DNA of 64,000 nucleotides from a bacterium. Its GTDB lineage: Bacteria; Patescibacteriota; Minisyncoccia; Phycocordibacterales; UBA2100. Where the stretch lies: contig JAEUQT010000001.1 in assembly GCA_016789445.1 (NCBI GenBank), forward strand, positions 67,603 to 131,602, in the 5' to 3' direction. Under the pieces are notes generated by a model that searched no databases, was not told the DNA's origin, and was given only the letters and a program-made list of their open reading frames with translations. The translations under genes and the position numbers were made by a program. Shown here in pieces: positions 5,134 through 46,912 of this stretch (position 1 is the stretch's first letter; the number at the start of each line of letters is the position of its first letter).

Positions 5134-5592
5134 CTATTCGGGAAGATTTGCACGAGTCCCGATTTGTATGTCGTGCTGATCCGCGAATCCGGCACGTACC
5201 TCTAGTACATACCGAGCCGGTGAATGAGGAGTGAAGCTTTGAGGATAGGTATCAGGCGAGAGGTTTTTCTCGATATGGACCACGCTCCCTGTCGCATCAA
5301 GCCAGAAGATATCGATGGAATAGAGCATGTCCTTCATCCAGAAGGGATACACTCCATCCTCGTCGAAGATGAACAGCATCCCCTCGTCGTCTGCCAACGG
5401 AGCACTCCCGCTCAAGCCCTGAGCACGGAGCGCATCAGTATCAGCCACCGCCACGCGCAGCGGTTTGTCGGCGAGAAGCAGGGTTTCCGTCGGCACTATC
5501 GAATGAGGTGCCGAAACTTCAGTTTTATGAAAGAAAGCGTATCCCACGATACTGATGCCAAGAAGCCCGAGAACGATGGGAAGCGCGCGCAT
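5134..5592 (-). CDS. DUF192 family protein (N-terminal signal/TM)
   Basis: MRALPIVLGLL start gives a TAATG overlap with the upstream gene. Conserved LFIFDEDGVYPFWMKDMLYSIDIFWLD motif typical of DUF192/COG1430. Confidence 0.8.
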   Translation of the reverse strand: MRALPIVLGLLGISIVGYAFFHKTEVSAPHSIVPTETLLLADKPLRVAVADTDALRAQGLSGSAPLADDEGMLFIFDEDGVYPFWMKDMLYSIDIFWLDATGSVVHIEKNLSPDTYPQSFTPHSPARYVLEVRAGFADQHDIQIGTRANLPE

Positions 5593-6002
5593 TACGCCAA
5601 GAATACCAGGATGACCGCCATTACGATGAAGTTGACGAGCCAATACCCTCCGACGATCGCAAGGTGCTTAAGCGGCTTCATCTCCCAGAGGACCGCACCG
5701 AGAAGCGGCGGCAGTGCGAAACCGAGCCATACCCAGATACCCAACTCGATCGCCCCCACCCAGTCATAGACACCCCACGCGATACCGAAGTAATTAAGGA
5801 CGTACGCAGCCAGAAGTGCGCTCACAAATGCAAAGAAGACCGAAACCGGCATGCGCTTACGGGCTTTCGCCTGCTGCTCGGGTGTCAGATTGACACTACG
5901 CATATATGCGGCACCGAAGACCTTGGTATGGAACCAGGCAAAACCGACGATCACCGCTGCTACCGCAGCGGCAAGGAGAGGAATGAGCGTTACTTCGAAC
6001 AT
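5592..6002 (-). CDS. small integral membrane protein (4 TM, DUF1761-like)
   Basis: 136-aa hydrophobic ORF translationally coupled to the DUF192 gene. Confidence 0.7.
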   Translation of the reverse strand: MFEVTLIPLLAAAVAAVIVGFAWFHTKVFGAAYMRSVNLTPEQQAKARKRMPVSVFFAFVSALLAAYVLNYFGIAWGVYDWVGAIELGIWVWLGFALPPLLGAVLWEMKPLKHLAIVGGYWLVNFIVMAVILVFLA

Positions 6003-6090
6003 AGCGAAAAATAATGATGAGGCTGATACGTACCCTCATCATATGCCGATATCCGCCCACAGCCACTGGCTGCTGTTGAAAAACTCAGTG

Positions 6091-6175
6091 CGGAGGGTGA
6101 GAGATTCGAACTCTCGGTGGGTTTCCCCACGCTCGCTTTCCAAGCGAGTGCACTAGACCACTATGCGAACCCTCC
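6091..6175 (-). tRNA. tRNA-Ser (anticodon GGA)
   Basis: Minus-strand GGAGGGT acceptor stem. Anticodon loop TTGGAAA in a CTCGC/GCGAG stem. Long variable arm GTGGG-GAAA-CCCAC. T-arm GAGAG-TTCGAAT-CTCTC. Discriminator G. CCA not encoded. Confidence 0.85.
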
Positions 6176-28473: not shown

Positions 28474-28575
28474 TCTGGGGAGTCGAAGCTATACCACAGA
28501 CGACACTGGGCAGAAATTGCCGCAGTGCTACCATTCCTTCAGAAGTCGCGCTGACAACGATGCAAGGAGGATCGC

Positions 28576-28834
28576 TATGTCAGAAATGCACCAATGCGAA
28601 ATGCGCATCGCCACTGAGGACAATATGCAGTGCGCGGGTGAGACCAATTGCAGGATCGAGCATAACGGCACGAAAGTGTATGCGTGCGATCCCTGCATTG
28701 CGACCCTTACCGGGACTCCATTCTGCTTCGAGCACGGACGTGTACATATCATGTTCCTTGGGCGCCCCGGTGTATTTGGATGCCCCGATTGCCTGCGCGA
28801 AGCGGATGCCTTACCTCAACAGGTAATGGGATGA
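28576..28834 (+). CDS. cysteine-rich small protein (86 aa, 8 Cys including CDPC and CPDC, probable Zn ribbon)
   Basis: AAGGAGG 6 nt upstream of the ATG. Terminator hairpin immediately downstream. Confidence 0.65.
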
Positions 28835-28860
28835 TTATTTGGCTCGTGGCCAATGTCAGA

Positions 28861-28891
28861 AGTCCCCGATGAAAACATCGGGGACATTCTT
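28861..28891 (+). terminator. intrinsic terminator after Cys-rich gene
   Basis: GTCCCCGATG-AAAA-CATCGGGGAC followed by ATTCTTT. Confidence 0.55.
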
Positions 28892-29006
28892 TGAGAACTC
28901 TCGGTTCTCAACGGGCGATTTCGCTTCGCTCATCACCCTGCTCTCCGACACGGGAAAACTACAGTTTTCCCGACCCCTTTCGCCTCTCGTTGGCTGAAGG
29001 CCAACG
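28890..29006 (+). repeat. structured intergenic repeat, copy A (three hairpins)
   Basis: TTGAGAACTCTCGGTTCTCAA, then CCCTGCTCTCCGACAC, then GGGAAAACTACAGTTTTCCC, then CTCGTTGGC-TGAAG-GCCAACGAG. Homologous to copies at 34429..34542 and 39985..40095. Confidence 0.7.
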
Positions 29007-29648
29007 AGATTTTGCAGGTGGCCACAGTTTTGTGAGGGGGTGCTGCGCGCAATCATGCCGGTGCGCCTTGCAGATGTAACGGCCGTAGAGCACGAGGCCG
29101 TTGTTTACGTATTTCCAGTCTTTCTCCGGCACCAACGCTTCCAGATCCTTTGATATCTTGTTGAGATCGGTATGGGTCGTCAGTTCGAATTTCCGTGCAA
29201 AACGTTTTACGTGCGTGTCCGTCGGGATTCCCGGCCAGACATCAAATAATTCCCCCACAATGACATGCGCCGTCTTATAACCGACGCCCGGTAGTTTCTG
29301 CAGCCTCGCGACATCGTTCGGTACTCTGCCGCCGTATTCTGCCTGTACCATCTTCGCCGACGCGATCACATGCTTCGCTTTCGTGCGGAAGAACGAGACT
29401 CGAGCGATTTCGCGCGCGAATTCATTCGGATCCGCGGACGCAAAATCCTTGGGTGTCTTGTATTTTGCGAAGAGCGTCTCGGTGACTTTATTTACCAGCT
29501 TATCGGTACACTGCGCCGAGAGCATCACCGCAACCACGAACTGGAATGGCGTCGTGTGATTGAGCTCACTTTTTGGTTGCGGATAGGCCTTTTTGAGGTA
29601 GCGGACGATCTTTGCGGCGCGGGCTTTTCGTTCAGCAAGACTCGTCAT
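28959..29648 (-). CDS. nth: endonuclease III-like DNA glycosylase with incomplete Fe-S ligand set
   Basis: HhH-GPD core (LPGVGYKTAHVIVGELF, DTHVKR). C-terminal CKAHRHDC-AQ-H-PLTKL-W where consensus is C-X6-C-X2-C-X5-C. The last 17 codons lie inside repeat copy A. Confidence 0.82.
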   Translation of the reverse strand: MTSLAERKARAAKIVRYLKKAYPQPKSELNHTTPFQFVVAVMLSAQCTDKLVNKVTETLFAKYKTPKDFASADPNEFAREIARVSFFRTKAKHVIASAKMVQAEYGGRVPNDVARLQKLPGVGYKTAHVIVGELFDVWPGIPTDTHVKRFARKFELTTHTDLNKISKDLEALVPEKDWKYVNNGLVLYGRYICKAHRHDCAQHPLTKLWPPAKSRWPSANERRKGSGKL

Positions 29649-29657
29649 CCGAGCATC

Positions 29658-30155
29658 TTACTGGATGGTGATCGGAATTGAAATCGAGGCAGCGTTTTCA
29701 GGCAGACCCGATGGATTGTCGTTACGCAGTATGAGGGTCGCCTTCCCTTTGTAGTTCGGGATCGAGACTTGGAAGCTGAACGGTACGAAGGCCGGCGTCA
29801 TCCACTCTCCCTGTGCCTGTACCGGACCTTCAGCGATCTTTTTGCCATTCGCGTCTTGCACTTCATACGGGAAACTCGCCTCGAAATACCACCCACCGAC
29901 GGCCTTGCCGCTCACCGTGAATGTCGACGGGACGGTCGCGCCGGGCGCCGGCATAGTCACTTGGATGCGATTGGAATCCGCATTATCGTACACCGCCACC
30001 GGCGCGGTCGGATTCTGTGTCGGCGTAGTAGTCGGCGTGGAGGTTGCCGGCTGATTAAGCCCAGGAACCTGGGGCAAGGCTTCAAATCCACCGGTGTACC
30101 AGACACCTGCTGCAAAAGCGAGCGCCGCTATGAATATGGTGAAAAGGATACGCAT
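29658..30155 (-). CDS. Gmad2/GerMN-type immunoglobulin-like domain protein, membrane-anchored
   Basis: N-terminal TM (MRILFTIFIAALAFAA), Pro/Thr linker, then FTVSGKAVGGWYFEASFPYEV pattern of Gmad2. Confidence 0.72.
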   Translation of the reverse strand: MRILFTIFIAALAFAAGVWYTGGFEALPQVPGLNQPATSTPTTTPTQNPTAPVAVYDNADSNRIQVTMPAPGATVPSTFTVSGKAVGGWYFEASFPYEVQDANGKKIAEGPVQAQGEWMTPAFVPFSFQVSIPNYKGKATLILRNDNPSGLPENAASISIPITIQ

Positions 30156-30197
30156 GGCTTCACTATACCAGACGTATGAGGTGTCGTTTGCTTTCAA

Positions 30198-31163
30198 CTA
30201 GAGCTCAGCGAGGACCTTCGCCACCTTGTCCGAATCGTGGCGTGCAAGGTCTGATTCTGACGCGAAATCGCCCAGAATGATCTCCGTCGCATAGGTCTCC
30301 AGCTCGGTCGTATCGAGCACCATCGGCTCCTTCTTCTCTTCAGCGTAGGCAGCGAGCATTGCCGGATCAGGCTTCGTGGTGTTGCAGAGAACCGCATCGA
30401 ACGATTCGATACCCATGTACGCGCAGAGTTCTTTGGCGACGGCGGAGATGGTATATCCGTTGGTCTCTCCCCACTTGGTCATAAGCGGCGCGACGAGCAC
30501 TTTCTTGGCGGTACTGGTGCGGAGGACCTCCTGCATACCTTCGACAAGGAAATTCGGCATCAGCGACGAATAGAGGTCACCCGGGCAGATCACGATGACG
30601 TCGGCTTCTTCGATGGCCTCTGCGGTCTCATCGTAGATGCGGGCAGGCGGCTTGAGGAAGACCTCTTCGATCCTGATATTGCCATCATGCTTAGGCTCGT
30701 CGATATTCGTCTCTCCTTCGATCTCGGTGCCGTCTTCCAAGCGCGCATGCACATGCGCCTTATCGAGCGAGACCGGTAATACCTTGCCGTTGAGATCGAG
30801 AAGCTCCGAGGCCTTTTTGATTCCTTCAATATCTGAGCCGTAGATGGACGTGAGCGCCACGAGGAACAGATTCCCGAAGCTATGTCCGTGGAGTGAGGAT
30901 TTATTCCCGTTGCCGTTACCGTTCTCGAAACGGAACGCGAACAGTTTGCGGAGGATCTCCGCGCGCTTCCCTTCCGAGAGCGCGAGGAGACAGCGGCGCA
31001 CATCGCCCGGCGGGAGCACGCCGAATTCGTCCCGCAGGACACCGGTAGAGCCGCCGGAATCGAACATGGTAACGACCGCCGTGATATCCAGCGTATACAT
31101 CCTGAGGCCGCGCAGCACGACGTAACTGCCGGTGCCGCCTCCGATCGTGACGACTTTCTTCAT
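30198..31163 (-). CDS. YvcK/CofD family protein (UPF0052, gluconeogenesis factor-like)
   Basis: VVTIGGGTGSYVVLRGL and FDSGGSTG motifs. Confidence 0.85.
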   Translation of the reverse strand: MKKVVTIGGGTGSYVVLRGLRMYTLDITAVVTMFDSGGSTGVLRDEFGVLPPGDVRRCLLALSEGKRAEILRKLFAFRFENGNGNGNKSSLHGHSFGNLFLVALTSIYGSDIEGIKKASELLDLNGKVLPVSLDKAHVHARLEDGTEIEGETNIDEPKHDGNIRIEEVFLKPPARIYDETAEAIEEADVIVICPGDLYSSLMPNFLVEGMQEVLRTSTAKKVLVAPLMTKWGETNGYTISAVAKELCAYMGIESFDAVLCNTTKPDPAMLAAYAEEKKEPMVLDTTELETYATEIILGDFASESDLARHDSDKVAKVLAEL

Positions 31164-31250
31164 ACGTATCCTGAGAATAGCCGCCGCCGGAAGGCAGTGG
31201 TGATTCCTACTATAGCTGACGGATAGTCCGTACGCTACTGACCGCTTACG

Positions 31251-31637
31251 TTACGCGTCCAGGGAGTACGGATCGGCTGGCAGGAACGAGAGCGCGAAGG
31301 TGGCCATCATGATGGCGAAATCGCGCATACCGATGGGACTCAGTCCTATCTCAAAGACAAGGACAGCGAGATGCAGGCCAAGCAGGATTGCCGCCGGTCG
31401 GATATACAAACCGAGCGCAAGAAGGACTCCCATGGCGATCTCGAAACCGCCATTGAGAAGGACGATCATCTCAGCCTCGAGACCGGTGATGTTCATCGCC
31501 CACTGCGGTACCCAGCTCGTCCACGCCGATTGATCGAAGAATTGCGAGAAACCGAACCACAGGAAGAGGATCGCGAGTCCGATGCGTAGTACGAAGATAC
31601 CCCATTCAGTTCTGCGTTCCATATCACTTGACGACAC
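31251..31637 (-). CDS. DoxX family membrane protein
   Basis: 128 aa, 4 TM. GIFVLRIGLAILFLWFGFSQF typical of DoxX. Confidence 0.72.
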   Translation of the reverse strand: MSSSDMERRTEWGIFVLRIGLAILFLWFGFSQFFDQSAWTSWVPQWAMNITGLEAEMIVLLNGGFEIAMGVLLALGLYIRPAAILLGLHLAVLVFEIGLSPIGMRDFAIMMATFALSFLPADPYSLDA

Positions 31638-31642
31638 CTACC

Positions 31643-32017
31643 TTAAGATCGACTAAGATCGACTAAGATCGCGGCTTGCGCCGCGCCGCCGCCATGCTGC
31701 CCGTTGAATGCGGCGGAACCATCCTTGCCGCACAGCCCTTCGATGGCACGCTCGCCACCCGGGTGTCGCGGTATCCACGACGTGAGATCGTACACACCGC
31801 CATTGATGATGGACCAGCAATCGCTGGATGAGTTGTGTGACGCGACATCTGCAGCGCTGTAGGCAGCCTGCGCAGCATCTTCATTCGAAGGCACTGAAGG
31901 GGTTGCTGGTGCCTCGTGACCATCCTGCCAATACGCGAGTCCGCCGGTTGCAGCAATTACGGCAATACCGATGAGTGTGGGGATGAATTTGTTCTGCATG
32001 GATCCAGTATACCCCAT
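31643..32017 (-). CDS. cytochrome b5-like heme-binding domain protein, membrane-anchored
   Basis: CWSIINGGVYDLTSWIPRHPGG (HPGG heme motif) after an N-terminal TM. Confidence 0.72.
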   Translation of the reverse strand: MGYTGSMQNKFIPTLIGIAVIAATGGLAYWQDGHEAPATPSVPSNEDAAQAAYSAADVASHNSSSDCWSIINGGVYDLTSWIPRHPGGERAIEGLCGKDGSAAFNGQHGGGAAQAAILVDLSRS

Positions 32018-32602
32018 CTAGAGCGCCGCTTGCGCCAGCAGGGTGACACCGAGGATGCCGATGAAATTCATCGCATACGAGATCGGTATGAAGACGCGGG
32101 TGTCCATCTTCGAGAAGCCCATGAGCGCGAGCCCGAGCTCATCCGGGAGCGGCGATGCGATGATGATGGCTCCCGTCACAGGAAGGATCCAGTGCAGTAA
32201 CGGATGATGGCGAAGGACACGTAGACGCTGACGCAGCGAGGTCGTCAGAAGCATCATGGCATTGTCGGCGAGGGAATTGCGCACGAACATGAACAGGAAT
32301 AAATCCCCGAGCACAGCACCGGCTGCGCCGATGAGTGCGACCGTGAGCGGGGAGGATACATTCGCGATCTCCATCAAGACGACCGTCGCCGGCGCGAGCG
32401 TGAAGAGCGAGGTGAATCCCATGCCGGCAAGGAAGCTGCCCGGGACGACATGCGGCATCGAGGCAAGTACCCATGTCTCGATGGCACCGGTGAGATACAG
32501 CTCGATCGCCACATAGATGCTCACGATGATGAGGAAGAGGTTTCGCGCACGCGCGATACGCTGCGCATGCACTTCCCCGCGCGATAATTTATTACGCGAC
32601 AT
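32018..32602 (-). CDS. hypothetical polytopic membrane protein
   Basis: ORF 32018..32629 trimmed to M10 to limit overlap with uppP. 5-6 TM. Confidence 0.55.
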   Translation of the reverse strand: MSRNKLSRGEVHAQRIARARNLFLIIVSIYVAIELYLTGAIETWVLASMPHVVPGSFLAGMGFTSLFTLAPATVVLMEIANVSSPLTVALIGAAGAVLGDLFLFMFVRNSLADNAMMLLTTSLRQRLRVLRHHPLLHWILPVTGAIIIASPLPDELGLALMGFSKMDTRVFIPISYAMNFIGILGVTLLAQAAL

Positions 32603-33368
32603 AGAGATACGCGAGAACCGCGACACCAAGCACGACGCGGTACCAGCCGAAACCGGTGAACGAGTGCGTCTGCACGAGACGCATCAAGAAACGGATACCT
32701 GCATAGGCGGCGATGAACGAAACAAGGAAGCCGACCGCGAGAAGCTCCCATTCGTGCGCAGCGAACGAGCTACCGGTTTTCAGAAGATCGTATCCGGTTG
32801 CCGCAAGCATCGTCGGGATCGCCAGAAGGAACGAGAACTCGACGATCTCCTTGCGCCCGAGGCCGAGGAGCATGCCTCCCACGATGGTGGCCCCCGCGCG
32901 CGAGACGCCCGGGATGATCGCGATCGCCTGGATGCAGCCGATGACGAACGCGGTCATATACGGCATTTCCGAAAGCGGTGTCTCGACGATCGTGCGGTCC
33001 TTTCGCCAGTATTCGAAAATGATGAGTATGATACCCCCCAAAAGAAGCGTCCACGCGATTATTTCCAAGCTGTCGAAAAGGAATCCTTTCACCAACGAAT
33101 AGAGGGCGTAACCGATAAGTGCGGTGGGTATGAACGCCACACTCACCCGCTTCATCACGCAGAAGTTCAGGAAGACGCGCCGCCAGAAGATGAGGACCAC
33201 GCTCGCGATGGCTCCGAGCTGGATCGCGATGATGAAGCTCGAGAGGAACGCGCTTTCAGGGATCCGCAGGACCTGCGACGTCAGGATGAGATGGGCCGTC
33301 GATGAGATCGGGAGAAATTCGGTAAATCCCTCGACGACGCCGAGGATGATGGCTTCAAGGAAATTCAT
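32592..33368 (-). CDS. uppP: undecaprenyl-diphosphate phosphatase (BacA/UppP)
   Basis: VVEGFTEFLPISSTAHL and PGVSRAGATIVGG motifs. Confidence 0.92.
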   Translation of the reverse strand: MNFLEAIILGVVEGFTEFLPISSTAHLILTSQVLRIPESAFLSSFIIAIQLGAIASVVLIFWRRVFLNFCVMKRVSVAFIPTALIGYALYSLVKGFLFDSLEIIAWTLLLGGIILIIFEYWRKDRTIVETPLSEMPYMTAFVIGCIQAIAIIPGVSRAGATIVGGMLLGLGRKEIVEFSFLLAIPTMLAATGYDLLKTGSSFAAHEWELLAVGFLVSFIAAYAGIRFLMRLVQTHSFTGFGWYRVVLGVAVLAYLYVA

Positions 33369-33374
33369 ATCCTA

Positions 33375-33842
33375 CTACTGTACACGATGGAACGAGAGAG
33401 TGTTGCCCCGATCCAGATAGATAAGCTCGAGAGAATCTTCGTCCGCTTCCACGACCTTGAAATAGAGCTTCTCCTCTTCGCTCATGGCGAGCGAGAGATA
33501 TACCGCACCGTCTTCAATCGTCCCCGCGTATGCGGTGTCGGGTATTTCCTTGGTAAACACCATCCAGAGACCATCGGAATCCTCCTCGCCTTCATAGCCA
33601 TCCACCACGGTGCCGTCATTACGGATCTCGCGGGTGAATTTCGGATCCTCATCGGACTGCCACATCCCGATGATGTTCGACATCACCGTCGCAGCATCAC
33701 TGAGCGATCCCTGCTCATAGGGCGCAGTAACAGGATCCGCACTCCGATTAAAACCATGATCGAATCCCACGAAATATCCGACACCGCTCGCGATTATGAT
33801 TCCGCCGAGGATAAGGAGCAGTTGTTGCATACCGATAATCAT
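33375..33842 (-). CDS. hypothetical membrane-anchored protein (155 aa)
   Basis: N-terminal TM followed by an acidic soluble domain. No family recognised. Confidence 0.6.
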   Translation of the reverse strand: MIIGMQQLLLILGGIIIASGVGYFVGFDHGFNRSADPVTAPYEQGSLSDAATVMSNIIGMWQSDEDPKFTREIRNDGTVVDGYEGEEDSDGLWMVFTKEIPDTAYAGTIEDGAVYLSLAMSEEEKLYFKVVEADEDSLELIYLDRGNTLSFHRVQ

Positions 33843-33890
33843 ACTCTGCCGGTAACCTTCTGAAAAAGCAGCAGCGTGAGGCGTGGGGAA

Positions 33891-33920
33891 AAGAAAAAGG
33901 AGCCAGCCGGCTCCTTTTTC
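33891..33920. terminator. bidirectional intrinsic terminator
   Basis: AAAAAGGAGCC-AGCC-GGCTCCTTTTTC, 20 nt downstream of the 33939..34328 gene. Confidence 0.6.
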
Positions 33921-33938
33921 CTACGTATATTCGAGAGA

Positions 33939-34328
33939 TTACCAGAGGCCGAAACCCTTTCCTGCCAGATACCCGCCCATGACGATCGCCACCAAGCCGC
34001 CGGAGGTATACCACGTCGGCGTATTGAACTGGCGCATGAGGCGTCCGACTTTCGTGTACGGCATCGCAAGATAGATGATACCTTCGACTGCCATCCAGGC
34101 ACCGACAAGCGTGAGGAGGCCCTGCCAAGTTGCCGTGAAGATAGGGTGTGCGATGACGATCGCGAGACCGGCGAGAAGCTCGGCCACGCCGAGGATGAGA
34201 AGCAGCGGCCTGCTGCCGAGTATCTCCGTGAAGATCGGCATGAATGATCGCTGTCGCATCATGATGATGCCGCCGGCAATCAAGAAATACAGACCGAATA
34301 ATTTCGCAAGAAAGATGGAAAGTTCCAT
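33939..34328 (-). CDS. DoxX-like family membrane protein
   Basis: 129 aa, 4 TM, DoxX-like hydrophobic pattern. Confidence 0.68.
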   Translation of the reverse strand: MELSIFLAKLFGLYFLIAGGIIMMRQRSFMPIFTEILGSRPLLLILGVAELLAGLAIVIAHPIFTATWQGLLTLVGAWMAVEGIIYLAMPYTKVGRLMRQFNTPTWYTSGGLVAIVMGGYLAGKGFGLW

Positions 34329-34428
34329 ATCTGATAAGAGAGGTTTCCCTACCGTTTAATGAGCGAATTGTAACGTATCTAGCGGACCACAATGCTCGCT
34401 TCGCCGTGCAACGGGGATAACTTAAAAC

Positions 34429-34542
34429 TTGAGAACCCTCGGTTCTCAACGGAGAACTTCGCTTTGCTCGTTCCCCTGCTCTCCGACACGGGGAACCGGC
34501 CGCGGTTCCCCGACCCCCTCCGCGATTCGTCTAAGACGAATC
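34429..34542 (+). repeat. structured intergenic repeat, copy B
   Basis: TTGAGAACCCTCGGTTCTCAA, CCCTGCTCTCCGACAC, GGGGAACCGGCCGCGGTTCCCC (compensatory version of hairpin 2), GATTCGTCT-TAAG-ACGAATC. Confidence 0.7.
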
Positions 34543-35101
34543 ATTTCCCCGCCTGCCACGCACCGATCGCATCGATGGGATGGATGAGCTGGATTACATT
34601 GAGCGCGAGCGAATCGCGGATGAAATAGAGCGCGACAAGCTCGAGAGCGATGACAAGTGCGATCGAGGCCCGCGTCGGCAGTTTCCATGTTAGGAGGAAA
34701 CCGATGATGACGGAGATGATATCTCCCACCGAATTGACGATACTGTCGCCGAAATAACCTTGTGCGAGCGCCTGCTCGCGATACCGATCGATGACCATGT
34801 CGGTATTCTCGAACAACTCCCATCCCATTTCTATCCCGATCGCGAGCATGAGGCGGATACCAAGCGGGATACGCGGAAAGAAGTACGTAAGGAGCGCGTA
34901 GAAAAGGACGCCGTGGATGATATGCGAGAGCGAATACCAGTCGCTCACGTGTTGCGAATTGCCGTCGCTGAGCACGACACCGTGCCAGAATTTGATGTAT
35001 CCGCCGGAATACATGAGCGGCTGCCCCATGTACCACAAAAGCCCTGCATGCAGAAGAATAAGTCCCAGAACACCCGCAATTACAAGAAGGATATTTCGCA
35101 T
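34541..35101 (-). CDS. polytopic membrane protein (DUF2585/UPF0314-like)
   Basis: 186 aa, 5 TM. Tightly linked to the upstream DsbD-like gene. Confidence 0.65.
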   Translation of the reverse strand: MRNILLVIAGVLGLILLHAGLLWYMGQPLMYSGGYIKFWHGVVLSDGNSQHVSDWYSLSHIIHGVLFYALLTYFFPRIPLGIRLMLAIGIEMGWELFENTDMVIDRYREQALAQGYFGDSIVNSVGDIISVIIGFLLTWKLPTRASIALVIALELVALYFIRDSLALNVIQLIHPIDAIGAWQAGK

Positions 35102-35102
35102 A

Positions 35103-36791
35103 TCAGCCGAAGGTAAACGTAAACGCTTCTAAGGTACCGCTCTTCACCCTGATTTCGAGCACGTGCTCTTCCCCACTGGGATTGCGGATGAGCTCGTAGA
35201 GGCGCTCATCCTGTACCCGTACCACACCTGTTTGTACATCTTTGCCCGCAGCAGCATTCACGATCTCACCATCCTGCCATATCTCAAGTTCAGCTCCTTG
35301 CGCGGAACCTGCCACCATAAATACCTCACCCGCTTTATAGCGGAATACGATCGTTGCGTCCTCCGATACTGAAGCTGCATGTTCGGGAGTGATGTTCCAG
35401 GTGCCGCCAAGATACAGCGCATTCAGCACGAACGAATCCGGAAGCGTAAATGATTGCTGCCCCGGTACGAAACGCTTCCCTCCTGCAAGATTTTGATTGC
35501 GCAGCGATCCGAAATAGATCTCCGGGCTTTGCGCAAGATTCCGGGCTTCACTTCGCTGATCGGCAACCAAGGGGAGAGACACATCGGGTTCGGGAAGACT
35601 AAGTTTCTCTGCGCGATCCCGCAATGCCTCGCGGATCTTCTTTTCAGTCTCGGCGTACCCGCCTTCGCCGATATGGTCGTAGATGATATTCCCCTCGATA
35701 TCCACGAGATATTTGCGGGGCCAGTACTGATTGCCGCAGGCGCGCCACGTCGCGTAATTATTATCCAAGACCACCGGATAGGTGATACCGAATTTCCGCA
35801 TCGCCTCCTCCACGTTGTTGATGTCCTTCTCGAACGCGAATTCCGGCGTGTGAATGCCGATGATCTCCAGACCCTGATCCTTGTATCGTTCGTACCAGGC
35901 GTTCATATACGGGAATGTGCGTTGGCAATTGATGCAGCTATAGGTCATGAAATCGATGAGAATGACCTTCTTCCCCACCAGTTCACCGACCGTGATTCCG
36001 TCGGTATTCACGAATCCTGCGGGGGACTCGATCTCGAAATACGGACGGATGCCCGTCTCTTCTTCCATGCCGATACGCTGCAGGAGTCGCTGTTCCCAAC
36101 GGACGGAATCAACATACCCGCTTTCCAAGAGCCACACTTCAAACTTCTTTTCGTAGCCCGATGCGATAAGTAGACCGAGCGCAATAAAGAGGATGCCGAC
36201 CGTCTTTTTGAGGGCGCCACGAGAATCAGCTGCGCGTGTAAGACGATCCGCGAACCGCTGTCCGATGAGCGCGATACAGATGAGCATGATCGCAAGCCCA
36301 GCGGTATACGCGAGAAGATAGGAAAAGCCGAGCAGAAATGAAGCCGGCAGCACCGTGGCAAGGATGACGAAATACGTCGGCGAACACGATGAGAATACCG
36401 GACCGAGTGCGACGCCGATTACGACATCGCCCCAGAAGCTTTTCTTCTGATACCCCGTACCGACGAGTTTATTCGAACGCGATGAGAGTTTTGCCATCCC
36501 GGGGATTCGTTCCCACAAGGAGGGGAATATGAACGTGAATCCCAAGAAGACGAGCAGCCCTCCGGATAGATACGTCCAGAAACTTTCAGGTACGGCAATG
36601 AAGAGCGATGAGACTTTAAGGAGGAGCGTGAAGAGGATTATCGAGAGCGAAACCGAAGCGACGACGACATAGGGCGTGAGCCTGCTCCTCTCTGCCGCGG
36701 AAGAGCCCACGACCACCGGCAGGAGCGGTAGTATGCACGGAGCAAGGACGGTCAGCGTACCGGCAAGAAACGATACCGCAAGAAGCGCCAT
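35103..36791 (-). CDS. thiol:disulfide interchange protein, DsbD/CcdA-like transmembrane domain fused to thioredoxin-like (TlpA/ResA-type) domain
   Basis: N-terminal TM with LAPCILPLLP, central TM bundle, then thioredoxin CXXC (YSCINCQRT). Confidence 0.82.
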   Translation of the reverse strand: MALLAVSFLAGTLTVLAPCILPLLPVVVGSSAAERSRLTPYVVVASVSLSIILFTLLLKVSSLFIAVPESFWTYLSGGLLVFLGFTFIFPSLWERIPGMAKLSSRSNKLVGTGYQKKSFWGDVVIGVALGPVFSSCSPTYFVILATVLPASFLLGFSYLLAYTAGLAIMLICIALIGQRFADRLTRAADSRGALKKTVGILFIALGLLIASGYEKKFEVWLLESGYVDSVRWEQRLLQRIGMEEETGIRPYFEIESPAGFVNTDGITVGELVGKKVILIDFMTYSCINCQRTFPYMNAWYERYKDQGLEIIGIHTPEFAFEKDINNVEEAMRKFGITYPVVLDNNYATWRACGNQYWPRKYLVDIEGNIIYDHIGEGGYAETEKKIREALRDRAEKLSLPEPDVSLPLVADQRSEARNLAQSPEIYFGSLRNQNLAGGKRFVPGQQSFTLPDSFVLNALYLGGTWNITPEHAASVSEDATIVFRYKAGEVFMVAGSAQGAELEIWQDGEIVNAAAGKDVQTGVVRVQDERLYELIRNPSGEEHVLEIRVKSGTLEAFTFTFG

Positions 36792-36795
36792 CGCG

Positions 36796-38019
36796 TTATT
36801 CTACCGCTTCTTTCGAGAGGGATTTGAGCGCAACACTGTACGCCGCATCGCGCAGCGAGATCTTTTGTGCGACTGATTCCGCATACACGTTCTCTGCGGC
36901 TGCTTCCATCATCGGGCGCAGCTTCGCGAATACGTCCTCTTTCGTCCATTTCTCCTGCCGCCTGTTCTGCTCCCATTCGAAATAGGAGACCGCCACTCCT
37001 CCTGCGTTCGCAAGAATGTCAGGAATCACGATTATTCCCTTGTTATTCAGAATCGCATCCGCTTCGAGCGTGGTCGGACCATTTGCGAGCTCGAGCACGA
37101 TCGATGCTTTGATATCAGGTGCGTTCGTCTCCGTGATGGAATTCTCGAGGGCTGCCGGGACGATGATATCGACGGGGAGCGCCAGAACATCAGAAGGGGA
37201 GATGGCAGTTCCACCGAAACCGGAGAGCGTCCCCTTTTCGTCTTTGAATTTTCCTACCGCTTCGACATCGATGCCGTCTTCCTTGTAGATACCGCTCTTC
37301 GAATCGGAAAGACCGACGATAGTGAATCCTTGGCGGGAGAGGTACTCCGCAAGATATGAACCTACATTACCGAATCCCTGGATCGCAACCGTCCCCTTCG
37401 GCTCTTTCCCCAGCTTCCGCATGATCGCTTCAAGTGCGAAGCCGCCGCCGTAGCCCGTAGCCTCAGTGCGACCTTCAGAACCACCCTGTCCAACCGGCTT
37501 TCCGGTGACGACTGCGGGCGAATGCTCACCGACATGCTTCGAATACTCATCCGCGATCCAATGCATCATCTGCGCATTCGATCCCACATCCGGTGCCGGC
37601 ACGTCTTTTTCAGGTCCGATGACATGCGCGAGCTCACGTGCGAAATTCCGTGTGAGACGTTCCAACTCTCCTTCTGAGAGCGATTTCGGATCGACTTCGA
37701 TGCCGCCTTTGCCGCCGCCGAAGGGGACTCCGATGAGAGCATTCTTCATCGTCATCCAGAACGCGAGCGCCTTCGCCTCATCGAGATCCACCTGCGGATG
37801 GAAACGCAAACCGCCCTTGTATGGCCCGCGGATATTATTGTGCTGCACGCGATACCCACGGAAGGTCTTGGTCTCCCCGCTATCCATTTCAACAGGCACG
37901 TTCACTTCGACGACCCGATCAGGTTCCTTGAGGCGCTGCTGGAGATTGGGATGCGCTTCGGTGAGCTCGAGCGTTCGCTGTAATTGCGCCAGAGCGCGCT
38001 GCCAGGGATTGTTCTGCAT
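36796..38019 (-). CDS. gdhA: Glu/Leu/Phe/Val family dehydrogenase (glutamate dehydrogenase)
   Basis: KGGLRFHPQVDLDEAKALAFWMT and GGGKGGIEVDPK motifs. Rossmann GFGNVGSY. Confidence 0.9.
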   Translation of the reverse strand: MQNNPWQRALAQLQRTLELTEAHPNLQQRLKEPDRVVEVNVPVEMDSGETKTFRGYRVQHNNIRGPYKGGLRFHPQVDLDEAKALAFWMTMKNALIGVPFGGGKGGIEVDPKSLSEGELERLTRNFARELAHVIGPEKDVPAPDVGSNAQMMHWIADEYSKHVGEHSPAVVTGKPVGQGGSEGRTEATGYGGGFALEAIMRKLGKEPKGTVAIQGFGNVGSYLAEYLSRQGFTIVGLSDSKSGIYKEDGIDVEAVGKFKDEKGTLSGFGGTAISPSDVLALPVDIIVPAALENSITETNAPDIKASIVLELANGPTTLEADAILNNKGIIVIPDILANAGGVAVSYFEWEQNRRQEKWTKEDVFAKLRPMMEAAAENVYAESVAQKISLRDAAYSVALKSLSKEAVE

Positions 38020-38037
38020 CTAAGGATTTTACTGGAA

Positions 38038-38088
38038 AACGCCAAGAATGCCCGGCCTTTTGGCACGGGGCATTCTTGGCGTTCTTTT
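38038..38088. terminator. long-stem hairpin (16 bp) with flanking A/T runs, 19 nt upstream of gdh start
   Basis: AACGCCAAGAATGCCC ... GGGCATTCTTGGCGTT, then TCTTTTG. Confidence 0.5.
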
Positions 38089-38122
38089 GAAAAGAGCGCC
38101 GGCGGGCGCATCCGCTTCCAGC

Positions 38123-38189
38123 AAAAACGCCCGGTCCGAATTAACAAACTCCGCGCTCGTCGCGCAGAGTTTGTTAATTCGGCGTTTTT
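38123..38189 (-). terminator. long imperfect hairpin terminator immediately after the sugar dehydrogenase stop
   Basis: AAAAACGCC...CCGAATTAACAAACTC...GAGTTTGTTAATTCGG...GGCGTTTTT. Confidence 0.5.
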
Positions 38190-39345
38190 ACTCCTCTCTT
38201 TTCACAATGCGAAAGATGCGATCATCCCCTTCAGCCGGAGAGCCGCGGCCATCCTGGTTAGATGTCGCAAAGTAGATCGCCCCGTCCGGCCCCTCGATCA
38301 CCTCGCGGATTCGTCCGTATTCTTCGCGGAAAAGACGATCAAACCCTGATGCGGCGCCATCCACCAAAGAGACCCGCATCAGGTTCTCTCCACGAAGCGC
38401 ACCGAAGAAAAGATTATCCTTGAATTGCGGAAAGAGCTTCCCCGAATAGATCATGGCAGATGACGGCGCCTCTGCTGGAGTAAAAACGAGAAGGGGAGAA
38501 ACCGTTCCTTCTTTCGTCTTCTCATGCGAGACCAATGGCCAGCCGTAATTCCCTCCCATCACGATCTTATTCACCTCATCACCTCCGCCAGGGCCGTCGA
38601 AACCGGACGGACCATGTTCCGTCTCGTACATCTCTCTTTTCGAATTCCACGCGATGCCCTGCGGGTTCCGATGCCCGTAGCTCCAGATAGGTGATTGCGG
38701 GAAGGGATTCCCCTCCGGAATCGACCCGTCGTCATTCACGCGCAGTATCTTCCCTGCGAGCGAATTCAGATCCTGGGCGAGTTCACCATCGGTCGCGTCT
38801 CCGGTCGTGATATAGAGCTTCCCGTCGGGACCGAATGCTAATTCGCAACCCGCATGGAAGCGCGCCGCTGGGATATCGCGCACGATCGGTATGATGTCGG
38901 AAATAGAATCACCCTCGTCTTTGAATCGCACGACATCGACACGCATTCCTTCAGACCCTTGATAAGCATACGCGGTATATACGTATTTGTTTGAAGCATA
39001 CTGCGGGTGGAGCGTCAGCGACATGAGTCCCTCTTCGCCACCACTCGAGACTTCATCAAAAGTATGGAGCGGCGCTTCGCGCAGCGTGCCGTTTTCAACC
39101 ACCCGAATGCGTCCGGGACGTTCTGTAATGAGCATGCGTGTCGATGAGGTAAAAACGATGCCCCATGGCACTTCAAGACCGCGCACGACTTCTTCGACCC
39201 GATAGGCGACTTCCCCGTCCATAACGGGAATCGTAGCATCCGCTGTCTGATTGATGGGTGAATATCCAAGCCAATAGATACCGAAGGCAGTCGTGATAAT
39301 GAGGGCGAGAACGGCGAACGCGGTAGCGAACGGAAGGGAATTCAT
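38188..39345 (-). CDS. PQQ-dependent sugar (glucose/sorbosone) dehydrogenase family beta-propeller protein, membrane-anchored
   Basis: HAGCELAFGPDGKLYITTGDA, HRNPQGIAW and NYGWP motifs. Start taken at MNSLPFATAFAVLALI (ATG 39345) inside the longer ORF. Confidence 0.85.
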   Translation of the reverse strand: MNSLPFATAFAVLALIITTAFGIYWLGYSPINQTADATIPVMDGEVAYRVEEVVRGLEVPWGIVFTSSTRMLITERPGRIRVVENGTLREAPLHTFDEVSSGGEEGLMSLTLHPQYASNKYVYTAYAYQGSEGMRVDVVRFKDEGDSISDIIPIVRDIPAARFHAGCELAFGPDGKLYITTGDATDGELAQDLNSLAGKILRVNDDGSIPEGNPFPQSPIWSYGHRNPQGIAWNSKREMYETEHGPSGFDGPGGGDEVNKIVMGGNYGWPLVSHEKTKEGTVSPLLVFTPAEAPSSAMIYSGKLFPQFKDNLFFGALRGENLMRVSLVDGAASGFDRLFREEYGRIREVIEGPDGAIYFATSNQDGRGSPAEGDDRIFRIVKREE

Positions 39346-39347
39346 TG

Positions 39348-39926
39348 TTATTTGAATACCACCGTCCGAAGGATATCCTCGAAGTCCCGTCGAATGCCGT
39401 CTTCTGGCGTGAGATAGGTACTGGTGAATGCGTATACATATGATGGACGGGCGATCGCGGTCGTGTCGCCTCGATACAAGCCGTCCCAGGTATAGGTCAG
39501 CGACTGCTGCCCTGCGATCGTCGTCGATGAAAGCTTCCCATCCACGGACTGTTTGAAATTCGAAGCGCTGGAATTCTTGATCCACTCTTCCGTGGTCAGA
39601 TCATCCAGATCATTCTGGATCATTTCTATGGAAATAGCAGGCGGCCCCTCGCCTCCTTGCGGTGCGGGGAGATCGGTAATGCGCATAAGGGTGACCACAT
39701 GATGACGACGCTGGGAACTTCCCGGCAGATCACGTTCCGTAAGCTGATATGAGGACGGATAGCGGAATTCGATGCCGTATTCCGGCGAACTATACGTTTT
39801 CAGGCTCGCGCCCGGTGTGGATGTGGAGGTATCCGGCGTTGGCACTTGGACCGCCTGGTCAGAGAGGAGCCAATACCCGCCGGCCGCAAGAACGACAACC
39901 ACTACGATGCCGATAAGCGCTTTCAT
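39348..39926 (-). CDS. hypothetical exported/membrane-anchored protein
   Basis: MKALIGIVVVVVLAAGGYWLL N-terminal anchor. Ends 2 nt before the downstream gene. Confidence 0.6.
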   Translation of the reverse strand: MKALIGIVVVVVLAAGGYWLLSDQAVQVPTPDTSTSTPGASLKTYSSPEYGIEFRYPSSYQLTERDLPGSSQRRHHVVTLMRITDLPAPQGGEGPPAISIEMIQNDLDDLTTEEWIKNSSASNFKQSVDGKLSSTTIAGQQSLTYTWDGLYRGDTTAIARPSYVYAFTSTYLTPEDGIRRDFEDILRTVVFK

Positions 39927-39984
39927 AACCGCACTATACCAACGCCGCGTATTTTTTCCATGAACCAACAAGATTCTCTTGTTT

Positions 39985-40095
39985 TTGAGAACCCTCGGTT
40001 CTCAACGGACGCCAGCGCTTCGCTCGGCGCCCTGCTCTCCGACACGGGAAAACTACAGTTTTCCCGACCCCTTTCGCCTCGCGCTGCTGCGCGAG
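39985..40095 (+). repeat. structured intergenic repeat, copy C
   Basis: TTGAGAACCCTCGGTTCTCAA, CCCTGCTCTCCGACAC, GGGAAAACTACAGTTTTCCC, CTCGCGC-TGCTG-CGCGAG. Confidence 0.7.
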
Positions 40096-40100
40096 CCGCT

Positions 40101-40694
40101 TCAAGTACCCGAAAGCTTGGTAAATACGACCAGGCGCTGATCGTACGTCTTGGCGGATTTCACCCACGAGCCGCCGCAGGTTATGAGATTCAGCCGCGCA
40201 GAACCCGAAGGATTGAAAATGATCTCCGTCGGCACCGCGTCATACGGGTACGATCGCTTACCGGTGACCACGAATGTGCGCCGGGTCCCGTCACGCCGCT
40301 CGACGATTATCTCATCGCCGGTTTCAAGTTCATCGAGGCGTTTGAAAACACCAGAGAGCCCGAGTCCGTTGTCGACATGTCCGGCAATGACCGAAGATCC
40401 TGCGCCGCCGGGCACGACGCCGTACTTGTACCAACCGACATCGGTGAAATTGCTCGGCACTCCCATGTTGCCTGCAGCATTTACGCCGACATCCTGCACA
40501 TTCGCATCGATACCGAGCGAAGGGACGATGAGGCGTACCGGATGGTGCTGCGGATTCGAGGCCACCACCTCATCAGGTGGCACCGTGATCTCCGTATCCG
40601 GGTTGTAGAAGAACGCACGCACGATGGTCGTGGTGAATATCGCGACCGCACAGAGCGTGAGCGTGAATATGAAAAAACGCGAAAGTCTGGCCAT
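40101..40694 (-). CDS. sortase family transpeptidase
   Basis: N-terminal TM, catalytic His (VIAGHVD), TLXTC motif (LNLITCGG) and conserved Arg. Confidence 0.85.
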   Translation of the reverse strand: MARLSRFFIFTLTLCAVAIFTTTIVRAFFYNPDTEITVPPDEVVASNPQHHPVRLIVPSLGIDANVQDVGVNAAGNMGVPSNFTDVGWYKYGVVPGGAGSSVIAGHVDNGLGLSGVFKRLDELETGDEIIVERRDGTRRTFVVTGKRSYPYDAVPTEIIFNPSGSARLNLITCGGSWVKSAKTYDQRLVVFTKLSGT

Positions 40695-45916: not shown

Positions 45917-46912
45917 TTATTCGATCGAGCCGAGCCTTTCGAGACCTTCGCTCGCGGTGACCACCTCGATGTTCGACTGCTTTACATAGTCGACAATCTG
46001 CGTGAGCAGCTCGCTGGAAATATTCACGGCGGTATCACCCGAACCTTCGTCTACCGGTTCGTCTACCTTATGGATAAGGAAGATGACCCATTTCTTCTGC
46101 GCAATTGCCTGATCGATCACCTCCTTGGCCTTCTCGAACGTCATATTGCTCGCATTCCAGCTGTAGAGAACGTAGCGATCGGTGTTTTTATCGTTGAATC
46201 CCTCCTCGACGCCGCGGGCACCGCTGAAGGACCCTGCTACCACAGTGCGGACATCATTGTTCACTGCACCGTAGGGATACGCGAAAACCTTAGTCTCATG
46301 CCCGAGATTCGCGAGGTCTTGCTTACCACCGATCACTTCATCCTGGACCCGTTGACTGTCTAAGGTTGTCAAATCCGGATGCGATCTGGTATGTGCCCCA
46401 ATCTCATGCCCACGTGCCGCTATATCGGCCAGATTGTTCGGTTTTATGAATGCCTCATAGCCTCCGTCTCCGAGATACTCCGTCGTGACGTAATAGGTCG
46501 TCTTGATGCCTGCAGCATCGAAGATGGGAAGCCCTTTCTCATAGCCTGATATCCATCCGTCATCAAAATCGAATGAAATAAGCGCACCACTTGCCGGCTG
46601 CGGCGCAGGTTGCGGTTCTGGAGTCGGAGTCGGGTCTGGTTCCGGCTGCGGCGCAGGTTCTGGAGTCGGCGTTGGCGTCGGTTCAGGTTGCGGCTGCGGT
46701 TCCGGCGTCGGCGTCGGCGTCGGCGTCGGCTCAGGAGTTGGCGTTGGAGCCGGACCACGAAGCGAATTGCGCAATTCGACACGCATCTGCACTGCAGCTT
46801 CTCGAGCCGCACGAGCGGCTTCGCGATCGGCGTGCGCCGTCTGATAAGGGAGACCAGTACTCACCAAAACAAGTGACGCGAGTACAATCAAAGCATTGAA
46901 TCGCTTCATCAT
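45917..46912 (-). CDS. secreted polysaccharide deacetylase (CE4/NodB domain) with Pro-rich linker
   Basis: Signal peptide, PTPEPTPTPTPEPQPQPEPTP linker, NodB motifs FDFDDGW and HTRSHPDL. Confidence 0.85.
   Translation of the reverse strand: MMKRFNALIVLASLVLVSTGLPYQTAHADREAARAAREAAVQMRVELRNSLRGPAPTPTPEPTPTPTPTPEPQPQPEPTPTPTPEPAPQPEPDPTPTPEPQPAPQPASGALISFDFDDGWISGYEKGLPIFDAAGIKTTYYVTTEYLGDGGYEAFIKPNNLADIAARGHEIGAHTRSHPDLTTLDSQRVQDEVIGGKQDLANLGHETKVFAYPYGAVNNDVRTVVAGSFSGARGVEEGFNDKNTDRYVLYSWNASNMTFEKAKEVIDQAIAQKKWVIFLIHKVDEPVDEGSGDTAVNISSELLTQIVDYVKQSNIEVVTASEGLERLGSIE

Follow-up and report, generated by a model that had tools for sequence, protein, structure and literature searches.

The 64,000-nucleotide stretch analysed here (hereafter the window; contig JAEUQT010000001.1, positions 67,603 to 131,602) comes from a member of the Patescibacteria, or candidate phyla radiation (CPR), whose genomes are tiny and tightly packed; the genome is most likely Kaiserbacteria- or Parcubacteria-like. 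It contains three copies, designated A, B and C, of a structured repeat that is previously undescribed. The copies are discrete insertions at the ends of genes, and all three sites are empty in the closest relatives. We put the chance at a little over one half (about 0.55) that they belong to a non-autonomous structured mobile element of 120-150 nt, mobilised in trans and specific to the Patescibacteria. The structure of the repeat, its covariation and strand bias, the status and junctions of the insertions, a 5-bp direct repeat at copy A and the taxonomic spread are shown by the sequences; mobilisation in trans and the nature of a partner enzyme are what we infer.

Number and setting of the copies

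An earlier note on this DNA, made from the sequence alone, had described three elements sharing one order of modules, and that order was indeed present at 28890-29006, 34429-34542 and 39985-40095. A covariance model run over the whole 64 kb with filters off returned only copies A, B and C (80-96 bits), the next sense-strand match scoring below 10 bits. The 16-mer CCCTGCTCTCCGACAC occurs exactly three times (mean of 0.5 in dinucleotide shuffles, 0 of 100 reaching three), as does the 21-nt hairpin-1 palindrome (shuffle mean 0.01, again 0 of 100). The true bounds of the copies are wider than those first drawn (Table 1). Their cores are 78-89% identical to one another, and their third hairpins are wholly different.

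The window is an ordinary bacterial chromosome of ~56% G+C, encoding among others ribonucleotide reductase, GroEL, RNase J, glutamate dehydrogenase, UppP (BacA), a CofD-family protein, a sortase and envelope enzymes. The copies lie 5.5 kb apart with 5-11 housekeeping genes between them, and a phage or prophage context was rejected because the surrounding genes are housekeeping genes. Pfam detected no transposase, integrase or reverse transcriptase among the open reading frames (ORFs) of the window. In at least six samples, short-read contigs of the window's organism end within the copies; the element breaks short-read assemblies at every copy. The copies start at 28890, 34428 and 39984, all in one orientation, a near-even spacing (5538 and 5556 nt) for which no cause was found and which may be coincidence.

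Fold, strand and covariation

The suggestion of a structured RNA family or a MITE/REP-like repeat (miniature inverted-repeat transposable element; repetitive extragenic palindrome) stood: compensatory changes keep the structure across ~33 homologues, and the window copies are insertions that relatives lack. The plus strand on which it had been described did not stand: the element folds on the minus strand, which is the gene-sense strand of the flanking genes. In that direction the order is hairpin 3, junction J1 ((N)GAAAGGGGUC), hairpin 2, junction J2 (GUGUCGGAGAGCAGGG), helix P with a GNA triloop, CCG, hairpin 1 (UUGAGAACCGAGGGUUCUCAA), an A-rich stretch and, often, hairpin 4. Hairpin 2, helix P and hairpin 1 form a three-helix core linked by the invariant single-stranded blocks GAAAGGGGUC and GUGUCGGAGAGCAGGG, and copy-specific hairpins (3 and often 4) flank it. 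Helix P, a fourth helix between hairpin 1 and the conserved block, had been missed; its arms (GGGUGAU/AUCGCCC in A, GGGGAAC/GUUCUCC in B, GGGCGCC/GGCGUCC in C) pair fully on the minus strand only, their G-U pairs being A-C mismatches on the plus strand. Hairpin 2 does differ in length with its pairing kept, as had been noticed, and its corrected dimensions are 8 bp with a 4-nt loop in A and C (20 nt) versus 9 bp with a 4-nt loop in B (22 nt). A T-run, said always to precede hairpin 1, is clear in copy C and not in A or B.

On the sense strand the core helices hold 13 G-U against 5 A-C combinations, and the sense fold is better than the antisense by 5-15 kcal/mol in 16 of 17 full-length members; fold stability has z = -3.5 to -5.6. 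No U-tract follows any hairpin, and there is no intrinsic terminator behind the fold. Since its proper fold arises on the gene-sense strand alone, the core acts in single-stranded, folded form; the active strand would be either a 3' extension of the upstream mRNA or the matching single-stranded DNA, a choice that we can only infer.

To look beyond the window, reference genomes and metagenomes were each scanned once with the invariant block as query; most matches were chance ones in coding sequence, and the whole element was found at ~45 loci. Every named locus belongs to the Patescibacteria (Saccharibacteria, Nomurabacteria, Paceibacterota and Parcubacteria metagenome-assembled genomes, MAGs); others come from groundwater or soil metagenomes. 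Multi-copy contigs occur (L126 with L147; L122 with two copies), and a scan of viral contigs gave chance coding matches only. Further copies, and covariation beyond shuffled controls, had been proposed as a check, and both exist. In an alignment (A2) of 33 non-redundant cores from Patescibacteria MAGs and metagenomes, 95.2% of the cells in the core helices pair, against 34-63% in slid-partner controls, and in eight pairs both partners have changed (31 cells). Covariation scores 0.126 versus 0.072 for shuffles, none of 500 of which reached the observed value, with controls that correct only partly for phylogeny. RNAalifold predicts the same helices independently.

Across the family, hairpin 2 is 18, 20 or 22 nt long, and helix P, of 11 or 26 nt, has a short form (GGGC-GNA-GCCC) and a long form with the same tip. 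These length changes shift the frame, so a coding explanation, which the earlier note had called unlikely from hairpin 2, is excluded; no reading frame is conserved across the copies, and only the first 8-9 codons are read, as a protein tail at site A. Four members carry a structured insertion of ~50 nt (GGGCGACC...GGUGUUCUCA) in the loop of hairpin 1 (L150:1784-1929, L151:1731-1897, L153:4390-4567 and L121:1731-1900); modular expansion of this kind is typical of functional RNAs.

Two other readings bear directly on the fold. Hairpins 1 and 2, each a perfect palindrome, have half-sites that are related (GAGAAC...GUUCUC) and are conserved in sequence as well as in pairing, hairpin 2 of L111 (GGGAGAAC..GUUCUCCC) has the hairpin-1 half-site, and a gene for a helix-turn-helix (HTH) protein follows the rplL-type copies in 5-6 loci. 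They might therefore be double-stranded DNA sites for a dimeric protein, either operators or recombinase or partition sites. We consider this very improbable: helix P and hairpin 3 keep their pairing with unrelated sequences, which duplex sites would not need, J1 and J2 are not palindromic, the two strands differ in both G-U/A-C counts and energy, and no such HTH gene lies near the window copies. The HTH gene was also tried as the mobilising enzyme and rejected, as it encodes only an HTH/DUF7342 protein. Least credible of all is a set of independently transcribed, trans-acting small RNA genes; a length of ~100-150 nt, the stable fold and the multiple paralogues would suit them, but hairpin 3 abuts or overlaps the upstream stop or start codon and leaves no room for a promoter, no intrinsic terminator follows, and the element is missing from close relatives.

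Insertion sites

Relatives with the same gene order and 80-87% protein identity (L163/L168 on one contig, L164/L169 on another, and L170) carry no copy of the element in 34 kb. Contrary to the view that all copies occupy intergenic gaps, copy A interrupts an endonuclease-III-like (EndoIII) gene at its 3' end, among the last four codons. The empty site reads ..(A/G)G TGGCC ACGAGCKAAATAA, and the window reads ..CGT TGGCC[146 nt]TGGCC ACGAGCCAAATAA. Target-site duplications had been proposed as a check, and at A the insert is flanked by the 5-bp direct repeat TGGCC, with the native end of the gene, (H)WPRAK-stop, displaced to a point just downstream. Most EndoIII-like homologues are ~220 amino acids (aa) long and end in ..RWPRAK-stop, whereas those bearing the element have ~229 aa and end in ..RWP(S/K)AN(E/D)xRKGSGKL-stop (RWPSANERRKGSGKL-stop), their stop codon being the UAG in the loop of hairpin 2. 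The protein terminus is thus rewritten by the element and gains ..SANERRKGSGKL. Hairpin 4 of copy A had been taken for a terminator that the copy abuts, and was also tried as the native terminator of a convergent 85-aa gene; both proved wrong, as it is missing from the empty sites and is part of the insert. The convergent gene itself (85-88 aa; 28560-28826, plus strand) is conserved in the relatives (L164 2164-2421); in those with an empty site its stop codon abuts that of EndoIII with zero spacer, and the genomes are in this sense tightly packed.

At site B, the empty sequence CAG GCG GGG AGA TAG TTATCCCCG (L168, L169) folds into a hairpin of the host (CGGGGA/UCCCCG) whose loop contains the DUF2585 stop codon, and copy B sits in that loop. 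A near-identical strain (Logan contig L001) is without copy B. In its place (window ~34421-34556) L001 has, at 5366-6019 on the minus strand, an opposite-strand gene for a 217-aa secreted cysteine-rich protein with no Pfam match, and the DUF2585 C-terminus there changes from WQAGK-stop to WQSAR-stop. The stop-codon hairpin appears to be an insertion hotspot.

Copy C directly follows the stop codon of the sortase gene. The empty site (L168, L169, L170) is a 38-nt gap that reads stop/TYCATGGAAAAAATAC..TATAGT..ATG (stop/TYCATGGAAAA..), and the native promoter-like TGGAAA..TATAGT remains intact downstream of the insert; a predicted splitting of a TTGAAG-N17-TATAGT promoter by copy C was therefore wrong. 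No unambiguous flanking repeat was seen at B or C, where the relatives are only ~85% identical, so these junctions are resolved to a few nucleotides.

Table 1. Features of the three window copies and of gene-end duplications, up to ~60 nt long in all types, at other loci.
Feature	Coordinates	Strand	Remark
Copy A insert, 146 nt	28853..28998	-	Empty sites in L163, L164
A, left direct repeat TGGCC (5 bp)	28999..29003	-	Host codons W-P
A, right direct repeat TGGCC (5 bp)	28848..28852	-	
A, displaced native EndoIII-like C-terminus	28835..28855	-	CAT TGG CCA CGA GCC AAA TAA = HWPRAK-stop; element-free homologues end ..RWPRAK-stop
A, hairpin 3 (UCUCGUUGGC/GCCAACGAGA)	28985..29009	-	5' arm host codons S-R-W-P, 3' arm inverted copy
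A, junction J1 (GGCGAAAGGGGUC)	28972..28984	-	Invariant block
A, hairpin 2	28952..28971	-	Loop UAG is stop codon of extended EndoIII ORF
A, junction J2 (GUGUCGGAGAGCA)	28939..28951	-	Invariant across family
A, helix P, long form	28913..28938	-	Tip GC-GAA-GC
A, hairpin 1 (UUGAGAACCGAGAGUUCUCAA)	28891..28911	-	
A, hairpin 4, within insert	28862..28885	-	On plus strand resembles terminator for convergent 85-aa gene
Copy B insert, 123 nt	34421..34543	-	Includes new stop codon TGA; empty in L168, L169
B, native 5' arm CGGGGA of host stop-codon hairpin	34546..34551	-	
B, native 3' arm UCCCCG of host stop-codon hairpin	34412..34417	-	
B, hairpin 3	34524..34542	-	Entirely within insert
B, hairpin 2, 22 nt	34490..34511	-	Other sequence, pairing preserved
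B, helix P	34451..34476	-	
B, hairpin 1	34429..34449	-	
Copy C insert, 136 nt	39965..40100	-	Directly 3' of sortase stop codon (40101-40103); empty in L168, L169, L170
C, hairpin 3	40078..40095	-	
C, hairpin 2	40046..40065	-	
C, helix P	40007..40032	-	
C, hairpin 1	39985..40005	-	
C, hairpin 4 (CAAGA-GAA-UCUUG)	39969..39981	-	Within insert
Gene-end duplication, rplL type	L029:3341-3570; L066, L050, L128, L144, L121, L127, L069		Up to ~60 nt
Gene-end duplication, GTPase type	L061, L094, L120, L006, L146, L007		
Gene-end duplication, rnhA type	L107		

Age, neighbours and a possible host function

Although the nearest relatives have it empty, the EndoIII site is occupied in lineages whose protein identity ranges from 94% to 65%. 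Two occupied lineages hold eroded copies (L166, 73 bits, with a diverged J2; L167, only 35 bits), so fixed copies can erode. In its core, copy A, which has the long helix P, resembles its paralogue C (89%) and long-P copies from unrelated sites more than it does the short-P copy that L097/L152 carry at the EndoIII site. This suggests recurrent insertion at a hotspot, which fits better than pure vertical descent; the hotspot is a natural palindrome, CGN TGG CCA CGN, encoding R-W-P-R. Between the window copy and that of L152, hairpins 2 and 1 each differ by a compensatory double change (both A-U to G-C).

Neighbours across the family include EndoIII, DUF2585, sortase, rplL, lepA, bipA, fusA, rnhA, a putative CCA-adding enzyme and ddl, some identified by motif only, and they occur in both orientations. 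The upstream neighbour is divergent about as often as it is co-directional (the GTPase, rnhA, L126, L151 and L153 types), and many members lie between convergent genes. No consistent position or orientation toward one functional class of gene, as for a riboswitch or a gene-specific cis-regulator, was found among these neighbours. A riboswitch in the 5' untranslated region (UTR), an idea that came from GGAG after hairpin 1 in CPR copies, was rejected because neighbours and orientations are inconsistent, and so was an rRNA-operon leader, since in three loci the 23S gene is 3 kb off with protein genes between.

These neighbourhoods bear on the possibility of a host-beneficial cis-acting RNA, namely a 3'-UTR or intercistronic module that binds a conserved CPR protein for mRNA 3' ends, stability or termination and has been duplicated to gene ends. 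It would account for junction sequences kept across deep CPR lineages, for compensatory changes between EndoIII-site copies in genomes with only ~65% protein identity, for three window copies that are co-directional with, and abut the stop codon of, the upstream gene, and for the many members between convergent genes, where terminators sit. We nevertheless regard it as unlikely. All three window sites are empty in the closest relatives, and the element is therefore dispensable there; the frequency of divergent upstream neighbours means that co-transcription is not obligatory; and the lack of a U-tract, the decay of copies in L166 and L167 and the functionally unrelated neighbours all count against it.

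Hairpin 3 and duplicated gene ends

The differences in hairpin 3 among the copies had been read as compensatory change, and this was not borne out. In copy A the host codons for S R W P (TCT CGT TGG CC) serve as the 5' arm, and the 3' arm repeats them in inverted form. The 3' arm of hairpin 3 likewise mirrors the local codons where other lineages are occupied at the EndoIII site (CATCGT/ACGATG in L166, TTTCGT/ACGAAA in L167), and in B and C the hairpin is wholly inside the insert. In ~22 of 30 non-redundant members, J1 is preceded at a distance of 2-4 nt by a stable local hairpin whose sequence is unrelated. Hairpin 3 is better described as a copy-specific module than as the compensatory evolution of one helix.

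Many single-copy members, termed type 2, have a 3' extension made of hairpin 1, GGAG, hairpin 4 and GACGAY, and are closed by a long stem in which arm 2, beside J1, pairs with segment 3 on the 3' side. Segment 3 duplicates the end of the conserved gene next to the element (copy 1), namely the C-terminus of rplL (..AG[A/G]KVTLK-stop) in nine loci and, on the opposite strand, the N-termini of lepA, of bipA-like and fusA-like GTPases and of rnhA. Arm 2 follows every change in copy 1; the rplL Ala codon is GCT, GCA and GCG in L029, L069 and L127, with the matching complement each time. In other CPR genomes the element thus has a copy of the gene end on either flank, and the codons of the functional gene also occur there exactly inverted. 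The 5' part of segment 3 is element-constant; the remainder differs from copy 1 almost only synonymously (including Arg CGA/AGG and Ser TCT/AGT), with the stop or start codon kept. Because the differences are nearly all synonymous, recent in-situ duplication is excluded, and copy 1 and segment 3 evolved in separate functional genes; a simple in-situ target-site duplication was rejected on these grounds as the source of the long gene-end repeats elsewhere. The route could have been gene-end insertion with an element-supplied replacement, or later allelic replacement by recombination. At its 3' side copy A has hairpin 1, AAGAAU, hairpin 4, UUCUGAC and AUUGGCC, and its counterpart L097 has hairpin 1, AAGGAG, hairpin 4, GCGACGA and AUUGGCC; this is the type 2 layout in miniature.

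A bolder version, which we hold only tentatively and think distinctly unlikely, is of a new kind of mobile RNA or single-stranded DNA in which the variable stem takes the host gene terminus as its template or pairs with it, either as a guide-like, reprogrammable targeting helix or as the substrate helix of a miniature self-cleaving or self-splicing ribozyme that restores the frame. What points that way is a J1-side arm that is an exact inverted copy of the adjacent codons and follows their changes (the rplL codons above; TCTCGT/CATCGT/TTTCGT at EndoIII), a displaced in-frame copy of the gene end on the far side, and a helix that closes either locally or between the element's two ends.

By analogy, the element might instead be a small catalytic RNA, a new self-cleaving ribozyme class or a minimal self-splicing sequence in mRNAs, whose removal or cleavage would restore the host gene end. 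Its architecture resembles that of small self-cleaving ribozymes (twister, hammerhead, hatchet and pistol) in its multi-stem junction, its highly conserved unpaired junction nucleotides amid variable or optional stems (among them the large domain in the hairpin-1 loop), the apparent permutation of an open helix, with the J1-side helix either capped by hairpin 3 or made by the 5' and 3' ends as in type 2, and its scatter in multi-copy contexts. Displaced gene ends are also in frame with the stop at the same place in five lineages at the EndoIII site and in eight at the rplL site. We give this idea a low probability all the same. The element matches no Rfam ribozyme or intron in sequence or structure even at E<=10, it has no group I or II hallmarks and no conserved splice-junction nucleotides, and the host ORF enters it and uses the conserved UAG in the hairpin-2 loop, which suggests that the unprocessed RNA is translated; recent independent insertions can explain the in-frame displaced ends. 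In addition, we know of no host gene-end duplication in the four ribozyme classes.

Comparison with known families

Rfam 15, proposed earlier as a check, matched no family. At the gathering score it gave a single match in the window, a tRNA gene (6091-6175, minus strand), and over the element region at E<=10 only sub-threshold noise; 13 CPR loci and the full-length L029 version gave no family on the element. No description of the element was found in the literature by sequence string or by topic. Elsewhere on these contigs, a Parcubacteria relative has a glmS ribozyme match (60.9 bits; L097:6162-6355, plus strand), and an apparent tRNA gene holds a group I intron (L111:2992-3260, plus strand) ~80 nt upstream of the L111 element, a proximity that is probably coincidental. 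The intron is consistent with the tRNA introns reported in Patescibacteria (PMC13011429).

To judge from sequence, the element would appear to behave as bacterial MITEs or REP-type interspersed repeats do; its RNA-like architecture is unusual, and its tie to host gene termini is unexplained. Like the MITE-type repeats Correia/NEMIS, ERIC, RUP and BOX it is short, non-coding, multi-copy and non-autonomous, it is present or absent according to strain, it is sited at gene boundaries, where it would be co-transcribed and folded in mRNA, and it has a short flanking direct repeat (copy A). Unlike them it has no terminal inverted repeats or common termini, it has several helices with invariant junctions rather than one long hairpin of inverted repeats, no parent insertion sequence (IS) is known, and its core is near-identical across class-level lineages. 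Without terminal inverted repeats it fails the defining test of a MITE. It does have multiple copies with insertion polymorphism (three copies, three sites empty in relatives, and L001 without B), and, as to a target-site duplication of fixed length, A has its 5-bp repeat and B and C have no unambiguous one; no related autonomous IS with a transposase was found among the window ORFs by Pfam or among ORFs near 36 loci, where an all-against-all comparison gave synteny groups only and no recurrent transposase, integrase or reverse transcriptase.

Rickettsia palindromic elements, reportedly simple palindromes inserted in frame and kept as coding sequence, are similar by description: they too are small structured repeats in the reduced genomes of host-dependent bacteria that enter the ends or bodies of protein genes and are translated (here the EndoIII tail ..RKGSGKL-stop). 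The present element, unlike them, cannot be coding throughout, since the length of its hairpin 2 changes by 2 nt, and in most cases it is found at the stop codon or beyond it. With the IS200/IS605 palindrome-associated transposable elements, and with REP/REPIN-RAYT systems (REPs being 20-40 nt), it has in common strand-specific hairpins, the lack of terminal inverted repeats, small size, two related hairpins (1 and 2) and a single orientation of the window copies. It differs in having no conserved target tetranucleotide, in perfect hairpins where theirs are imperfect, and in having helix P and the conserved junctions in addition. No conserved 4-5-nt target lies beside the left-end hairpin, the 5' flanks being different in A, B and C, and tblastn at the examined loci for a Y1 (HUH) transposase, with an approximate IS608 TnpA-like query, gave noise only; with no such transposase found by that query and no conserved target, the IS200/IS605 hypothesis was rejected.

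Class C group II introns, IS1397/ISKpn1 in REP loops and IS110/IS1111 resemble it in insertion at hairpins or palindromes (the loop at B, TGGCCA at A) and in lacking terminal inverted repeats, but they are kilobase-sized and encode their own enzyme or ribozyme, and none of their hallmarks is in the element. An integron attC site or gene cassette was rejected, the copies lying 5.5 kb apart among housekeeping genes with no integrase in the window, and so was a group I or II intron, as 120-150 nt is too small and no Rfam intron matches the element; the L111 intron is a separate, upstream tRNA intron.

Probable mobility of the element

Several points weigh against mobility. There are no terminal inverted repeats and no termini common to A, B and C, whose inserts are defined by comparison with empty sites; a clear flanking repeat exists at A only, and its target, TGGCCA, is itself palindromic. 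No autonomous partner or enzyme was found among the ORFs of the window or near the 36 loci, so the case for movement comes from presence and absence and not from a known mechanism. The divergence of the copies (cores 78-89% identical, hairpin 3 different) means that there was no recent burst in the window's genome. Invariant single-stranded blocks across CPR classes and same-site compensatory changes in hairpins 2 and 1, window against L152, also fit an RNA function at the level of the host. Formally, three precise losses in the relatives could of course stand in place of three insertions.

For a trans-mobilised element, the fold would serve as a handle for mobilisation, whether by an enzyme encoded elsewhere or by the RNA itself, and the invariant junctions with the sequence-conserved hairpins 1 and 2 may be the recognition module for such an enzyme. 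Insertion would be directed to, or tolerated only at, palindromic or hairpin-forming DNA at gene boundaries, and survival at gene termini would reflect target preference together with harmlessness. The element would be nearly harmless because a stop codon is supplied or preserved and downstream promoters stay intact.

For the CPR, neither Rfam 15 nor the literature on the topic yielded a comparable interspersed repeat or mobile RNA-like element. The family spans class-level lineages with an almost invariant core and inserts at the stop and start codons of housekeeping genes with nucleotide precision. It can also serve to mark strain-level variation and horizontal exchange among CPR populations. 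Identification of a partner enzyme or a catalytic activity could reveal a new mobilisation mechanism, possibly one guided to its target by base pairing.

Other features of the window

A giant ORF of 2657 aa (9195-17168, minus strand) is followed by one of 893 aa (17699-20380, minus strand), the latter without a Pfam domain. Their 3' ends have in common a 99-nt segment of 76% identity (9222-9320 versus 17714-17812), and related giant ORFs occur in L126 and L143. Degenerate GGN/CGG repeats with a 6-nt period lie inside ORFs at 18323-18433, 19454-19516 and 46589-46765 and encode low-complexity linkers; one of the ORFs carrying them is a polysaccharide deacetylase-like protein that also has a PARP-repeat Pfam match.

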